This document shows, piece after piece, positions 51,066-55,986 of a DNA stretch of 64,000 nucleotides. Source of the DNA: Verrucomicrobiota bacterium (GTDB taxonomy: Bacteria; Verrucomicrobiota; Kiritimatiellia; RFP12; UBA1067); the NCBI GenBank assembly GCA_050874585.1, contig JBNMKZ010000008.1, positions 344-64,343 of the forward strand, given 5' to 3'. Each line of letters starts with the position of its first letter. The first letter of the stretch is position 1. Both the position numbers and the translations under genes were made by a program. The notes under the pieces were generated by a model that was given only the letters and a program-made list of their open reading frames with translations, ran no database searches and was not told the DNA's origin.

Positions 51066-52232
51066 CTACTTCACAATGCGCACGCGAATAACCGCCGCGC
51101 TCGCCTCAAGGGCCTTGACGACTTCCGCCGGGACGACCGTGTCAGTGTCAATCAGCGTGTAGGCGAAGTCCCCACGGGACTTGTTCGCAATCGCGTCGAT
51201 ATTGATCTTGGCGTTGCCCAGAATCGACGTGAACGTGCCCAGCATGTTCGTCTCGTTCTTGTGGCAAATGGCAATGCGGCAGGCCTTGTTCGGCTTGCCA
51301 AGCGAGCAGGCCGGATAGTTCACCGAATTGACGATGTTGCCGTTCTCAAGATAGTCGCGCATTTCCTTGACGGCCATGACCGCGCAATTGTCCTCGGCCT
51401 CCTCGGTCGATGCGCCGAGGTGCGGAATGACGATGCAGCCTTTCTGGCCCGCCGTCGTCGCATTCGGGAAGTCCGAGACATACCGACGGACCTTGCCGGA
51501 CTCAAGCGCCGCCAGCATGTCCTTCTCGTTGACCAGCGCATCGCGAGCCGCGTTGATGATGATGACACCATTCTTCATCATGGCGATCGCCTCGGCATTG
51601 ATCATACCCTTCGTTGTCTCCAGTGCCGGCACGTGAATCGTGATGAAGTCGCAGGCCTCATAAATCGACTCGACATTCTTGCAGTGCTTGACGGCGTGGT
51701 CGAGGTTCCAAGCCGCGTCGACCGACAAGTAGGGATCGTAGCCATAAACTTCCATCCCGAGGCTGACGGCCGCATTGGCGACCTTCTGGCCAATTGCGCC
51801 CAGCCCGATGACACCGAGCTTCTTGCCCTGGATCTCCGTCCCCGCAAAGGCCTTCTTCGCCTTCTCGGCCGTCTTGTTGATCGCCGCGTCGGCCGCATTC
51901 GTCTTAACCCACTCGATGCCGCCGATGATGTCGCGACTCGCCAGCAGCATCGCGGCAATGACGAGTTCCTTCACGCCGTTCGCATTGGCCCCCGGCGTAT
52001 TGAAGACAACAATGCCCTTCTTCGCGTATTCGGCATGGGGAATGTTGTTCACGCCCGCACCCGCACGGGCAACCGCCAGGAGGTTCTCGCCAGGGACGAG
52101 TTCATCCATCTTCGCCGAGCGGACAAACGCGGCATCCGCCTCCGCAAAGTTCGCCGTCCGGGCATAGTTATCGGGTAGGTTCTTCAGCCCCACATCCGCA
52201 ATCGGATTGAGGCACGTGTACTTGTAGTTCAT
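51066..52232 (-). CDS. serA: D-3-phosphoglycerate dehydrogenase with ACT domain
   Basis: RAGAGVNNI, GLGAIG, PHLGASTEEAE, C-terminal ACT. Confidence 0.92.
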   Translation of the reverse strand: MNYKYTCLNPIADVGLKNLPDNYARTANFAEADAAFVRSAKMDELVPGENLLAVARAGAGVNNIPHAEYAKKGIVVFNTPGANANGVKELVIAAMLLASRDIIGGIEWVKTNAADAAINKTAEKAKKAFAGTEIQGKKLGVIGLGAIGQKVANAAVSLGMEVYGYDPYLSVDAAWNLDHAVKHCKNVESIYEACDFITIHVPALETTKGMINAEAIAMMKNGVIIINAARDALVNEKDMLAALESGKVRRYVSDFPNATTAGQKGCIVIPHLGASTEEAEDNCAVMAVKEMRDYLENGNIVNSVNYPACSLGKPNKACRIAICHKNETNMLGTFTSILGNAKINIDAIANKSRGDFAYTLIDTDTVVPAEVVKALEASAAVIRVRIVK

Positions 52233-52295
52233 CATTTTGTCTTTCTTCCGTAGAATTTATCATGGAATTTGCCGTCACGAATGACGACGGACGAT

Positions 52296-52780
52296 ATTAT
52301 ACCACAAAACCGCCTGCTCGGGGGCTTGCGCGGCGGCTCGCCCGACCCGGATGCGGCGACGATCTCGCGACGCCTTTCGCGCTTAGACAAGCAGCTTCGC
52401 TGAGCCTGCCCTGCCTCGGCGGTTATCACTGGCTTCGGACGGAGACCTCTCCTACGGCTGCGAGTCGCACCGCACCTCTCGTGCGACCGCCGCGCGCACC
52501 CCCTCGCCCGAGAAGAAGGACAGGCCGACCACAGGCCGGGACGCGGCAGATGGTTTTGCCGCGCCTGCCGTTCGGCAGGCCATCGAAACTGCCGCGACTG
52601 GGCCTACACAACGCCTGCGCGGTGGGGCTTCTCTCCGCCCTTCTGCGCTCCGCCGCTCCCAAGCGGGGTTCCCCGTTTTGCCGCGCCTGCCGCGCGCACC
52701 CCCTCGCCCGAGAGGAGGAACAAGGCCGACCACAGGCATCCCGCGGCAGTGGGTCTTGCCGCGCCTGCCGTCCGGCAGGC
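52296..52780. repeat. Dispersed GC-rich repeat, copy 2, with internal 200-bp-period duplication
   Basis: Matches 11167-11316; ccgcgcgcacccctcgcccgaga-like block at ~52490 and ~52690; aggccgaccacaggc twice. Confidence 0.9.
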
Positions 52781-52904
52781 GCATCCGCCCACTCGCCCCT
52801 AATCGAACGATTCGTGCGTTAAACGCAAAATTTCGACGAGCGAACGGCTTCGCGGCGGATGCTCATGGGCAAGGCCCCGACGCGGCAAGGGCAACCGCCG
52901 CGCC

Positions 52905-52986
52905 TCCCGTGCCCATCGCCCGGAGACTTACTGGGCAGTAAGTCCAAAGTTACTGGGCAGTAAGTTTTCTTCCGATGGGCACGGGA
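52905..52986. repeat. Four 14-bp units at 22-23-bp period
   Basis: IR tcccgtgcccatcg (52905) / cgatgggcacggga (52973) enclosing ttactgggcagtaa at 52928 and 52950. Confidence 0.85.
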
Positions 52987-53165
52987 AATTGCCGCGATGC
53001 GTACGCGGCGCACTTCTCCTGCGCACGACAGGAAATTCCGATAAGCATCCGAGGGAATGCGCCTACCCACGAGCCGAACCGGCCCTCCCCATCGGACTGG
53101 AAACTGACGGGCAGGAACAGTCGGTGCGCGGCGGATTGCGCTCCCAAACCGCCGCGTTGCGAAAC

Positions 53166-53762
53166 CTATTCCTCCGTGCCGTCCGTCAGGCGGTAGCCTT
53201 CGCCGCGGACGCTCTCAATGGTGAGCCCCCTGCCCAGTTTCTTGCGCAGGTTGGCAATCGTCTGGTCGACGGTCCGCGTCGTTCCGTAGTAGTCGAATCC
53301 CCAGGCCTCGTTCATCAGCGTCTCCCGCGAGACGACCGCGCCCGGTTCCGCCGTCAAAAGCCCCAAAATCTTCAGTTCACGCGGCAAAAGCCGAACCGAT
53401 GTCCCATCCGCCTGAATCACGGCCATCCGCGCAACATCAACCTGCACCGGTCCAATGGACCATATCTCCCCACCCGTTTCAAGGACGGAAAGTCCGCCGT
53501 CACCATCCTTGACCTCCACACGATACTTCGCCGACTGGAGCAGGTTCACCAGCCGCGAACGGGCCGCCCCGTCCTTGCCGACGACGACGACCTTTGGAAA
53601 CCTCAATAAACGCACGACACCGAGAATCGCCACAAGGGCAACTCCCGATGTCGCGCAATAGATGCAGCAGCACGTCAGGCAGGTGCAGGGGAAGCTACTG
53701 CACAACCATGAATCGGTCGTGCAGCAGTGCTGAGCCAACGCCAGAAGTGCCGCGAGCATCAC
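53166..53762 (-). CDS. Membrane-anchored OmpR/PhoB-type winged-helix protein with Cys-rich N-terminus
   Basis: LLPRELKIL..VSRETLMNEAWG..TRTVDQTIANLRKKL..ESVRGEGY; N-terminal 9 Cys then a hydrophobic helix. Confidence 0.8.
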   Translation of the reverse strand: MMLAALLALAQHCCTTDSWLCSSFPCTCLTCCCIYCATSGVALVAILGVVRLLRFPKVVVVGKDGAARSRLVNLLQSAKYRVEVKDGDGGLSVLETGGEIWSIGPVQVDVARMAVIQADGTSVRLLPRELKILGLLTAEPGAVVSRETLMNEAWGFDYYGTTRTVDQTIANLRKKLGRGLTIESVRGEGYRLTDGTEE

Positions 53763-53765
53763 CTG

Positions 53766-53948
53766 TTACTTACCACATGCGCAGTTGGTGGTGCAGGTGC
53801 AGGTCGCCTGACCGCATCCGCATTCACACGCCTGACCCGGCGTGCAGTTCTTGCAGCACGCCTTCTTCGGCGCGACACACGAACAACAACCGGCGAGAAC
53901 CGCCACCACTCCGGCGACAAGCGCCGCGACAATTGCACTCTTCATCAT
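53766..53948 (-). CDS. Small Cys-rich (metallothionein-like) lipoprotein
   Basis: AAGGAGG RBS; lipobox LAG-C; 13 Cys in 40 mature residues; TATACT box at 53988-53993. Confidence 0.75.
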   Translation of the reverse strand: MMKSAIVAALVAGVVAVLAGCCSCVAPKKACCKNCTPGQACECGCGQATCTCTTNCACGK

Positions 53949-54037
53949 TTTCAGCCTCCTTTGGCCTTAATCGTTTAACTGGCGCATAGTATAGCGAAAC
54001 CGCGTCCGCGAAGTGTCAGACGAATGTAAAACTTTGC

Positions 54038-55084
54038 TCAGACGATAATGCCTCCGCAAAGGACGGCATCGTCCTCCGCCCCATAGAAGACGGCACTCTG
54101 CCCAGTTGCGATGCCCATGATGCCCTCGGACAGCGAACAGTGCGCACCACGGAGAACGGCCGGGACGAGCCGCCCGGCACTGCGCACCTTGACGCGGCAT
54201 GGAATTGCCTCCTGCGTCGGTTCCGCCGCGCCCCAGTTCATCTCCGCGACATCAAGCGAAGTGCGGACGGCCTCGTCGGCCCGCCCCACGACGACGCGGT
54301 TTCGACATGCGTCCACGTCTATGACATAATAAGGTTCGCCCGCCCCACCGATGCCAAGGCCCTTGCGCTGTCCGATCGTGTAGTGCCAGAACCCAAGATG
54401 ATGGCCGAGGACGCGTCCGTCCGTCGTCACGATGTCGCCCGGACGATCCGCCGCGCCAATCAGCTCGTTCACGTCACCCGCATAGAAGTCCTGCGAGTCC
54501 GGCTTATCCGCCGCATTCAGCCCATGGGCACGAGCAATCGACCGAACCTCGGCCTTCGTCAGTTCACCCAACGGAAAGACCTGCCGCGCCAGCTGCTCCT
54601 GCGAAAGGCGATAGAGAAAATAGCTCTGGTCCTTCGCCTCATCCCGTGCACGGAGAATCGCCCACCGTTCGCCGCGCCGCTCGACACGCGCATAGTGCCC
54701 CGTGGCGAACTTGTCGAACGAAAGCCCCGCCTCAGCGGCCAAACGCGGCAGAAGACCGAACTTCATCAGCGCATTGCACCGGACACAGGGATTCGGGGTT
54801 CTGCCCGAGAGGTAGGTCTCGCGAAAATACGAGACGATGGCCCGATCGTACTGCGCGGCACAGTCGAAGACCTGGTAGTCAATGCCAATGGCCTTTGCAA
54901 AGGCCGCCGCACGCTCGATGTCCTCCTTCTCTCCAGCCCCGAAACAGGCATCACGCGGGCCGCCGCGATACTGCCCGCGCCACAATTTCATCGTAATGCC
55001 GATAACATCGTGGCCCTGCTCCTTCAGGAGTAGGGCCGCGACGCTTGAATCGACACCGCCGCTCAGTCCGACTGCGACTTTCAC
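54038..55084 (-). CDS. mnmA: tRNA 2-thiouridylase
   Basis: SGGVDS, TPNPCVRCN, ATGHYA, KDQSYFL, YTIGQRKGL. Confidence 0.96.
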   Translation of the reverse strand: MKVAVGLSGGVDSSVAALLLKEQGHDVIGITMKLWRGQYRGGPRDACFGAGEKEDIERAAAFAKAIGIDYQVFDCAAQYDRAIVSYFRETYLSGRTPNPCVRCNALMKFGLLPRLAAEAGLSFDKFATGHYARVERRGERWAILRARDEAKDQSYFLYRLSQEQLARQVFPLGELTKAEVRSIARAHGLNAADKPDSQDFYAGDVNELIGAADRPGDIVTTDGRVLGHHLGFWHYTIGQRKGLGIGGAGEPYYVIDVDACRNRVVVGRADEAVRTSLDVAEMNWGAAEPTQEAIPCRVKVRSAGRLVPAVLRGAHCSLSEGIMGIATGQSAVFYGAEDDAVLCGGIIV

Positions 55085-55101: not shown

Positions 55102-55986
55102 TCAGAACTGGTACTGGACCGAGAAGACCGCACCCGAACCGACACCCAGCTTCTTCGTGTTGCCGTTGCGGTAGAAGTGATCCTTGTTGCCCGTCTCGGC
55201 AAATGCCGCGACCAGCGTCAGGTTCTTCGTCACGAACCAGGCCACGTGCGCATCGTAGTAGTCGTGGTTGCGGATGTCGTCGCCGACGTTCACGCCCTGC
55301 TTGTACTCAAGACCGATGGCAATGTTCTCGGCAGGGAGGATGTCGATGTTGCCGAAACCGGCCACGCCATACTTGTTGTGACCGACCACGCCATTCACAA
55401 CCTCGTCCGACACGAGAAGACCAGCCGAGAGAAGGACGGGAACCGGCGTCTGGGTGATCAGCTTCGAGGCCACGATGTAGCCGTCCACGCCATTGTCGCG
55501 CAGGCCGAGAGCCTTGACCGTATCCGAGTCCGTGTACTTCCAGACACCGCCGATGGCGATTGCCGGAATCCAGGCCGTATCAAAGGCGTTCTCGTCGAGG
55601 ATGCGCAGCTTTGCGCCGATGTTGTGGGTGTTAATCGAGCCGTCGCCATAGCGATGAGCATCGACAAAGCCGTAGCCGTAGGAAAGCTCAAGGCGCTGCG
55701 CAACGGTCAGCGCGGCGGAAGCCGCCCACCAGTTGATGCCCGCATCACCGAGATTGACGTACCATCCGCCAACCTGCGGCTTCGAGACGATTTCATTCAG
55801 GTTGCTCGTGCTCGATCCCTCCCACGGCAATCCGGCCGTGTAGGCCAACGGGTTGAAGGCGATACCGCCCGTACCCTGCAGGTTGTTGAGCGGCACGCCC
55901 GCCTGCGCCGCGACCGCACCCAGCGTCGCAGCGGAAATGAGAAGCGTCCGAACCAGTGAGAATCCGTTTTTCTTGTTGATGTTCAT
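55102..55986 (-). CDS. Outer-membrane beta-barrel protein (DUF3034-like)
   Basis: Signal peptide; NLQGTGG, GLEYKQ, AHVAWF; terminal VQYQF beta-signal. Confidence 0.65.
   Translation of the reverse strand: MNINKKNGFSLVRTLLISAATLGAVAAQAGVPLNNLQGTGGIAFNPLAYTAGLPWEGSSTSNLNEIVSKPQVGGWYVNLGDAGINWWAASAALTVAQRLELSYGYGFVDAHRYGDGSINTHNIGAKLRILDENAFDTAWIPAIAIGGVWKYTDSDTVKALGLRDNGVDGYIVASKLITQTPVPVLLSAGLLVSDEVVNGVVGHNKYGVAGFGNIDILPAENIAIGLEYKQGVNVGDDIRNHDYYDAHVAWFVTKNLTLVAAFAETGNKDHFYRNGNTKKLGVGSGAVFSVQYQF

Follow-up and report, generated by a model that had tools for sequence, protein, structure and literature searches.

We analyzed a two-gene module on the (−) strand of a 64,000-nucleotide (nt) stretch of contig JBNMKZ010000008.1 (hereafter, the window) from a Kiritimatiellia genome (assembly GCA_050874585.1). 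The upstream gene (53766..53948, (−)) encodes a lipoprotein precursor of 60 amino acids (aa), as read from the open reading frame (ORF). The downstream gene (53166..53762, (−)) encodes a regulator of 198 aa, in which a Cys-rich tail and a single predicted transmembrane helix precede an OmpR/PhoB-type winged helix. Judging from sequence comparisons, this two-gene system is genuine and conserved. We interpret it as a self-contained, autoregulated envelope-sensing module, in which a soft metal would trigger the regulator and the thionein-like lipoprotein would act as a buffer; we give this reading slightly less than an even chance of being correct.

The search for related loci covered one genome per GTDB species. 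Among 408 candidate stretches, 404 encoded a winged-helix relative; the best 80 were examined, and nine of these (L005–L013) also matched the query upstream of the winged-helix region. Eight of the nine host genomes were labelled Kiritimatiellaeota or Kiritimatiellia, including metagenome-assembled genomes (MAGs) labelled Hadza or Nepal and one from horse faeces; all named hosts of the module were gut or faecal Kiritimatiellia MAGs. An ORF for a Cys-rich lipoprotein was located directly 5′ of the regulator gene in 8/9 of the related loci, and the pairing of the two genes on which the initial annotation had built was thus found to be conserved. In the window, the TAA codon of the lipoprotein gene was followed by CAG and then by GTG-ATG of the regulator ORF (sequence reading), in agreement with the 3-nt distance noted initially. 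The regulator start was placed at GTG (53762), with an alternative ATG at 53759, the latter used in database cluster P0001. At the junctions of the eight related loci, the genes were separated by 3 or 12 nt or overlapped by 4 nt (ATGA/GTGA); these short gaps and overlaps indicate translational coupling. The lipoprotein and the regulator diverged in parallel, with 78% and 72% identity, respectively, to their counterparts in L006 and 52% and 48% to those in L010. Flanking genes, identified by reading the ORF translations, varied among the loci (glutamyl-tRNA synthetase, glycoside hydrolases, a carbonic-anhydrase-like protein, and others). Apart from the window, only L005, which is 97% identical, had mnmA before the pair; the other seven loci had unrelated neighbors. 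Since the flanking genes differ between loci, the sulfur-metabolism neighborhood (cysK-metY-mnmA), to which the pair had been linked, is not a conserved association.

A protein search of 5.8 billion clusters gave 115 matches at E ≤ 1e-3 among 2485 candidates. Matches P0001–P0024 carried PF00486 only; 15 of them covered 91–99% of the query with 46–98% identity, and nine were partial (30–74%). From P0025 on, the matches were mostly ordinary response regulators with PF00072, aligned with the winged helix only (30–65% of the query). The possibility raised in the initial annotation, that the homologues are ordinary response regulators and the N-terminus is unconserved, was contradicted by these results: the full-length relatives share the Cys cluster, and none has a receiver. 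A profile of the N-terminal part (first 88–96 residues) was compared with 1.84 billion representatives and retrieved six proteins, four of which were true family members. P0129 (733 aa), matched by this profile, was discarded as a tandem-repeat artefact. P0130 (94 aa, E 3.3e-4) contained C-x-P-C-x-C-x2-CCC, a hydrophobic helix, and R-x-F-P-K, with neither a winged helix nor a Pfam family; it may represent a free-standing form related to the Cys-cluster anchor, or the similarity may be fortuitous, and it is too weak to count. PADLOC gave 0 families for the lipoprotein and the regulator, PHROGs gave only the winged-helix family phrog_731, and a blastn search with the module found no match among plasmids and phages; thus, nothing in these searches pointed to an origin from a defence system, a phage, or a plasmid.

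The Cys cluster of the regulator (53655..53726, (−); residues 13–36) has the pattern CC-x6-C-x2-FPC-x-C-x2-CCC-x2-C and is predicted to lie in the periplasm at the membrane surface. Residues 12–36 read HCCTTDSWLCSSFPCTCLTCCCIYC and contained 9 Cys, as initially described. In an alignment of 18 full-length sequences with 48–81% identity to the window protein, C13, C14, C21, F24, P25, C26, C28, C31, and C33 were invariant (18/18), and C32 was retained in 16/18. Most family members had an extra Cys at position 23, which is occupied by Ser in the window. Because seven Cys and the F-P pair were invariant across this alignment, the N-terminus of the regulator is evidently under strong constraint. 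It was also considered as a lipoprotein signal peptide, and this was rejected: a basic n-region was absent, and the residues preceding CC (AQH, ADG, AAN, ADR, and others) formed no lipobox.

A single transmembrane helix was predicted at residues ~29–53 (53604..53678, (−)). In the AlphaFold2 (AF2) model of the regulator the helix spanned residues 34–53, and the best 19-residue hydrophobic window was 29–47. The part preceding it was modelled as an apolar start (1–11) with a helix at 2–10, followed by a coil Cys segment (11–33), with a predicted local distance difference test (pLDDT) value of ~50. A simple hydropathy scan gave one membrane-competent segment (residues ~28–50) in all 18 family members. 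Its Kyte–Doolittle mean was 1.9–2.4, and its summed insertion energy was from −0.7 to +1.3; the second-best segment had values from +2.5 to +8.9, hence no second span. The hydrophobic helix reported initially was therefore recovered, as a prediction, both by AF2 and by hydropathy in all 18 members. The tail before the helix comprised 27–31 residues with 0–2 K/R, and the 15 residues after it included 2–4 K/R; in all 18 members the N-tail was neutral or acidic and the C-flank of the helix was basic. Since the winged helix must reach DNA, the tail would have to lie outside and the C-terminus inside, which would put the CCC triad where the helix emerges on the outer side.

The winged-helix DNA-binding domain of the OmpR/PhoB type occupied residues 97–193 (53184..53474, (−)). 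Pfam PF00486 (Trans_reg_C) matched residues 120–192 with an E-value of 2.5e-21 and 76 bits (cut-off 26.2), spanning profile positions 1–77 of 77. In the AF2 model, which was based on the 18-sequence alignment and had a mean pLDDT of 70.6, the winged helix had pLDDT values of 80–91, and its top Foldseek matches were PhoB, YycF, SaeR, and also CssR effector domains (template modeling score, TM(target), 0.75–0.91). Both the sequence threshold and the fold, an N-terminal β-sheet followed by three helices and a C-terminal hairpin wing, thus assign the domain to the OmpR/PhoB type, and the claim of the initial annotation was corroborated by Pfam, hhalign, and Foldseek. NCBIfam response-regulator models matched the regulator with their last ~100 positions only and far under their cut-offs, the best being CseB (72 bits; cut-off 350).

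Between the membrane helix and the winged helix, a cytoplasmic linker of the β-α-β(-β) type was found (residues 57–96; 53475..53594, (−)), a possible remnant of receiver β5/α5. AF2 modelled it as a strand (57–62), a helix (66–77), and strands at 81–86 and 92–96, with pLDDT 61–73. In hhalign against 24 ordinary response regulators, regulator residues 68–195 were aligned with their positions 112–229 with a probability of 99.9. Helix 66–77 corresponded to receiver helix α5, with residues 68–79 falling on the α5 region of those proteins, and the remainder to linker plus effector domain; β1–α4 had no counterpart. An alternative assignment of residues 57–86 to receiver β1-α1-β2 was abandoned, the profile alignment placing the helix on α5 instead. 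About nine linker residues (KDG.GGLSV) were missing from more distant regulator relatives. Response_reg (PF00072) did not match the regulator at E ≤ 1, and conserved Asp or Lys were not found in residues 55–96. The truncated receiver-like stretch described earlier is therefore at most a β5/α5 stub without a phospho-acceptor site.

We failed to find a histidine kinase adjoining the regulator, either in the window or in the nine related loci (ORFs within ~1.2–1.5 kb on the strand of the gene), and the absence of an adjacent kinase, noted at the outset from the neighboring genes in the window, was confirmed. Having neither a recognizable receiver nor an adjacent kinase, the regulator does not appear to be a two-component response regulator. 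It looks like an OmpR-family protein in which the receiver, save a possible β5/α5 stub, was swapped for a Cys-rich membrane anchor. The predicted protein cannot be phosphorylated in the canonical way, and a distant orphan kinase would find no target, because the regulator has no receiver. The combination of a DNA-binding domain with a predicted transmembrane helix places it among transmembrane transcription regulators (TTRs) by the definition used in PMC10269533. The earlier view of a one-component membrane regulator with a domain order opposite to that of ToxR/CadC was supported, its placement in the membrane being predicted.

The lipoprotein precursor had an n-region (MMK), a hydrophobic core, and the lipobox L-A-G-C. 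The lipobox [LVIF][AV]GC was present in 12/13 distinct sequences of the lipoprotein family, and signal peptidase II LspA (PF01252, E 1.2e-34) was encoded in the same genome. The signal peptide, the lipobox, and LspA together characterize the protein as a bacterial lipoprotein, with its lipidation predicted. All 13 Cys were located within the 40 mature residues (32.5%), 39 of which follow the lipobox Cys; CC, CxC, and CxxC motifs were present, whereas aromatics (F/W/Y) and His were absent. Besides the lipidated Cys, the mature form would thus carry 12 free thiols in 39 residues. Among six aligned sequences with 50–78% identity, 11 Cys (C22, C24, C32, C35, C41, C43, C45, C50, C52, C56, and C58) and also T36, G38, G44, and Q47 were invariant. 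With its low mass, ~30% Cys in CxC/CC/CxxC motifs, and lack of aromatics, the predicted mature peptide has the composition of a metallothionein; the compositional definition given in section 4.3 of PMC7558416 was followed. Homology to a metallothionein family was not found in Pfam or NCBIfam at E ≤ 1, and the lipoprotein profile gave 0 matches among PDB sequences at E ≤ 10. In a large protein-cluster database the family comprised 12 clusters. In ESM Atlas only unnamed clusters were retrieved, with a best score of 0.87, under the 0.9 level. No longer protein bearing the lipoprotein motif was found among 8000 candidates, which is weak evidence.

Upstream of the pair, a candidate operator TTTACA-N6-TGACAC was identified (54013..54030, (−)), a direct repeat of T(T/G)ACA with an 11-bp period. 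A −10-like hexamer, TATACT (53988..53993, (−); sequence reading), was located 19 nt 3′ of the TGACAC half-site, and the box sits at the position of a −35 element. A Shine–Dalgarno sequence, AAGGAGG (53955..53961, (−)), was read 6 nt 5′ of the lipoprotein ATG. The box TTTAC(A/G)-N6-TGACAC was present in 10/10 copies (the window and L005–L013, including the remnant L009); around it, the sequence was otherwise unalignable between distant loci. The hexamer was TATACT in the window and L005–L008, GATAAT in L010 and L012, CATACT in L011, and GATACT in L013, and its spacing from the box was 19 nt in each of the six copies counted (the window, L006, and L010–L013). The exact box occurred once in the 2.47-Mb genome to which the window belongs; with one mismatch, two more matches were found there versus two for a reversed control pattern. 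Five other genomes with the module gave six exact matches, of which five fell on the module promoter; the reversed control pattern gave 0. The sixth operator-like site, in G401, was inside an ORF and looks like a chance occurrence.

The direct-repeat geometry of the box is typical of tandem dimers of OmpR/PhoB-type proteins. The complex of PhoB with the pho box (1gxp) was among the Foldseek matches of the regulator. The box is thus a putative operator to which the regulator would bind. Because the conserved box was near-unique in each genome, autoregulation is suggested, and on the simplest reading the regulator would control hardly anything beyond its own two-gene operon.

The module was rare: its N-terminal part was found in 2/401 sampled genomes of the class, including the genome analyzed here. 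It is an accessory, patchily distributed, and often lost module, and the regulator family is very small. Damaged forms were observed. L009 (4890–5400) had an intact leader, −10 element, and operator box; its lipoprotein gene was deleted exactly, and its regulator, read from an upstream ATG, had ~50 middle residues missing. This locus is a decayed copy with both partners damaged, and the joint loss of both parts fits a joint function. In P0127 (97 aa, 8 contigs), an in-frame deletion joined the first 35 residues of the lipoprotein to the last ~62 residues of the regulator winged helix, a further sign of frequent breakage of the module in natural populations.

We propose the following mechanism. 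Outside the membrane, a thiophilic ligand would bind or bridge the tail thiols of two regulator molecules and alter their association. The cytoplasmic winged helices would then occupy the T(T/G)ACA direct repeat by the −35 position, which would switch the operon on. The lipid-anchored peptide so induced would buffer this ligand on the outer side of the cytoplasmic membrane, and this buffering would feed back on the sensor and reset it; the lipoprotein would thus be the effector and possibly also a partner in sensing. The Cys cluster itself is the probable input, because the regulator has neither a receiver nor a kinase. Both proteins carry multi-Cys CC/CxC/CCC arrays, and for this reason a soft metal ion, for instance Cu(I), Zn(II), or Cd(II), would be the favored ligand. 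In this scheme we infer the topology and the DNA target, as well as the nature of the signal, activation as opposed to repression, and the contact between the proteins. The exchange of metal or redox signals between the two proteins, suggested in the initial annotation, is conjectural.

The chemical setting was analyzed in the genome of origin (91% complete). DsbB, VKOR, and DSBA were not found in it, and the same searches were positive in 6, 3, and 8 of 14 control genomes, respectively. The usual machinery for forming periplasmic disulfides thus seems to be missing from this Kiritimatiellia lineage. Since DsbA, DsbB, and VKOR were not found, exported Cys may stay reduced in the presumably anaerobic gut organism; reduced exported thiols are a precondition for extracytoplasmic metal–thiolate or thiol-switch chemistry. 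A more specific version of the proposal, in which the tail cluster shares a thiolate metal or a disulfide relay directly with the lipoprotein and the occupancy of the buffer sets its own transcription, seems doubtful. Complex prediction for regulator residues 1–56 with the mature lipoprotein gave a score of 0.02 and a partner pLDDT of <50, values that speak neither for nor against contact.

Several observations weigh against the proposed metal-triggered module. The membrane helix was marginal on the insertion-energy scale (about 0), the N-terminal 55 residues of the regulator were modelled at pLDDT ~50, and an N-tail with 9 Cys is assumed to cross the membrane although no signal peptide precedes it. 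No metallothionein, MerT/MerP, or metal-sensor family in Pfam, NCBIfam, or PDB matched the lipoprotein or the regulator, no metal transporter or other metal gene recurred beside the module in the nine related loci, and composition is the sole basis for guessing at a metal. A scan for consensus sigma-70 promoters found no promoter upstream of the pair; a promoter that depends on an activator and has no −35 hexamer at 17 nt would be expected to escape such a scan. The module was encoded in 0/8 other sampled genomes of the same genus, all ≥90% complete, and the deletion variants P0018 and P0127 exist. Because the module is rare, often lost, and also found as deletion variants, its function, whatever it is, is dispensable.

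Other explanations were weighed against this one. The same architecture might respond to oxidation, with O2, H2O2, HOCl, or disulfides oxidizing the tail cluster and the lipoprotein serving as a sacrificial thiol buffer; in a strict anaerobe without a Dsb system, intra- or intermolecular disulfides would switch the regulator. We consider this unlikely. The failure to find DsbA, DsbB, or VKOR and the gut or faecal origin of all named hosts are in line with it, as is the precedent of RitR, an OmpR-family protein with phosphorylation lost and Cys redox sensing (described in the available part of PMC5965902; its structure 5u8m was among the fold matches). A functional periplasmic disulfide is likewise described for the ToxR-like CadC in the accessible text of PMC3096576. 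However, one or two Cys suffice for a thiol switch, whereas the seven invariant Cys in CC/CxC/CCC motifs together with 13 Cys of the partner look more like multi-ligand thiolate clusters, and no peroxidase, thioredoxin, or other redox gene recurred beside the module. It is also conceivable that the N-terminus is not translocated and holds a cytoplasmic or in-bilayer cluster, either Fe–S or polymetal, of the sort known from FNR and from WhiB-type or CopY/Ace1-type regulators, the lipoprotein being merely a regulated product and the hydrophobic helix serving for dimerization or peripheral attachment to the membrane. Cluster-ligating Cys-rich N-termini are common in cytoplasmic regulators, and the marginal insertion energy, the poorly modelled N-terminal region, and a tail without a preceding signal peptide would all agree with such an arrangement. 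We still regard it as quite improbable: the Kyte–Doolittle mean over 19 residues was 1.9–2.4 in all 18 members with the basic flank on the C-side only, and Cys-rich chemistry shared with an exported partner is most economical if both are in one compartment.

The lipoprotein could instead be a disulfide-knotted structural or surface peptide (adhesin, immunity factor, or signalling peptide) acting as a co-component that stabilizes or gates the regulator, like ToxS, TcpH, or VtrC for ToxR, TcpP, or VtrA, with an unrelated ligand as the signal. Operon-encoded periplasmic partners of transmembrane regulators are established, according to the parts of PMC9214523 and PMC7496328 available here, and translational coupling suggests co-production in fixed proportion. 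Against this, a disulfide oxidase was not found in the genome of origin, no periplasmic domain beyond the ~30-residue Cys tail could take another ligand, and the mature peptide lacks hydrophobic core residues typical of folded knottins, which leaves this option a slim chance. High-GC DNA yields many spurious ORFs on both strands, and the regulator might in principle be an ordinary response regulator with an unconserved N-terminal relic of a fusion, or its ORF might be mis-called or the frame be Cys-rich by chance in such DNA. This is hardly credible and is refuted by the Cys motif, which was invariant down to 48% identity with no relative having a receiver domain, and by the conservation of the pair and its promoter box across different genomic contexts.

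In the window, mnmA was located 5′ of the gene pair, followed farther upstream by a DUF3034 protein and then by MetY-type and CysK-type enzymes. The order cysK-metY-mnmA given in the initial annotation is correct as to the presence of these genes, but the DUF3034 protein between metY and mnmA was overlooked. This protein (294 aa; 55102–55986 (−)) carried a DUF3034 domain (E 7e-23) and a signal peptide. Five other proteins of the window (the serA-like protein, the regulator, the lipoprotein, the DUF3034 protein, and the metY-like protein) were all missing from the 1.5 kb on the flanks of mnmA in five congeners. Downstream (3′) of the regulator, 930 bp without a credible gene were followed by a gene for 2-hydroxyacid dehydrogenase. 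This gene-free stretch (52240–53165) was filled by two families of dispersed repeats. Element A (~52294–52700) contained an internal tandem duplication of ~200 bp. Element B (~52770–53160) contained an inverted repeat with 37-nt arms at 52905–52986 and ended a few bases from the stop codon of the regulator. The repeats had 78 matches with 71–100% identity on many contigs of the genome, several of them at contig ends, and look like miniature inverted-repeat transposable elements (MITEs) or repetitive extragenic palindromic (REP) elements. A search of 52000–54300 against Rfam gave only two sub-threshold microRNA matches, attributable to chance, and no family for the repeats.

Among known systems, several resemble parts of the module. 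The envelope lipoprotein NlpE, which has Cys motifs, reports to an OmpR-family output in the Cpx system, and MerP/MerT pass on a thiophilic metal through vicinal Cys pairs located within or close to a transmembrane helix. Unlike NlpE–CpxAR and MerP/MerT, the module has no kinase and no transporter, and no homology to either system was found (no Pfam match at E ≤ 1); the likeness is an analogy only. ToxR, TcpP, CadC, and VtrA likewise have a winged helix tethered by a single helix and combine sensing and output in one polypeptide without a kinase. Their order is, however, an N-terminal winged helix, a helix, and a folded periplasmic domain. The order in the module regulator is reversed, so it does not class as ToxR-like; its input would be a ~30-residue tail with at least seven conserved Cys and no folded periplasmic domain, and sequence relation to these proteins is limited to the winged helix. 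TTRs as a whole are widespread, with 50,302 in 9673 genomes, ~56% of them single-pass, according to the part of PMC10269533 available. In ToxR/ToxS, TcpP/TcpH, and VtrA/VtrC, the membrane regulator is likewise co-transcribed with a small extracytoplasmic partner, and cassettes of the ToxR/ToxS type evolve fast and are patchily distributed, as stated in the accessible text of PMC9214523. In contrast to ToxS and VtrC, the partner in the module is encoded upstream and is a Cys-rich lipoprotein whose 40 residues are too few for a lipocalin-like fold; its interaction with the regulator is putative.

RitR of Streptococcus is likewise an OmpR-family protein that lost its phospho-acceptor chemistry and uses a Cys input (available part of PMC5965902; PDB 5u8m). 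It is a cytoplasmic protein with one sensing Cys and a (pseudo-)receiver fold that is still complete, whereas in the module regulator a membrane anchor and a multi-Cys cluster replace the receiver. The metallothioneins SmtA/BmtA and MymT and fungal Cu-thioneins are, like the module lipoprotein, small, with about one-third Cys, CxC/CC/CxxC motifs, and no aromatics or His. The lipoprotein differs from them in having no sequence match to them and in being predicted to be exported and lipid-anchored. In the accessible part of PMC7558416, metallothioneins are placed among cytosolic Cu-binding proteins and no lipoprotein form is described; nor is a lipoprotein thionein described in the titles and abstracts of the incompletely covered literature on metallothionein and lipobox. 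Thus, the module belongs to the TTR kind, but it differs in its reversed domain order, the lack of a folded sensor, a receiver deleted rather than degenerate, and a lipoprotein partner of metallothionein composition.

The significance of the module is limited by its very narrow distribution and frequent loss. If the proposed reading is true, the module would be close to the smallest conceivable envelope sensor–effector circuit, with ~260 codons, one promoter, and no kinase. Sensing by a Cys cluster at the membrane surface would be a mode unrepresented among characterized transmembrane regulators, and the lipoprotein effector would bring the bacterial cell envelope into the range of metallothioneins. 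If direct sharing of metal or disulfides between the two proteins were also true, they would be the first extracytoplasmic lipoprotein metallothionein and the first TTR whose whole sensor is a membrane-proximal Cys cluster. Because of its apparent self-only regulation and the defined 18-bp box, the module might be transferable to a laboratory host as a compact biosensor. For the biology of the group, the module adds a function to Kiritimatiellota, a phylum with uncultured gut members.

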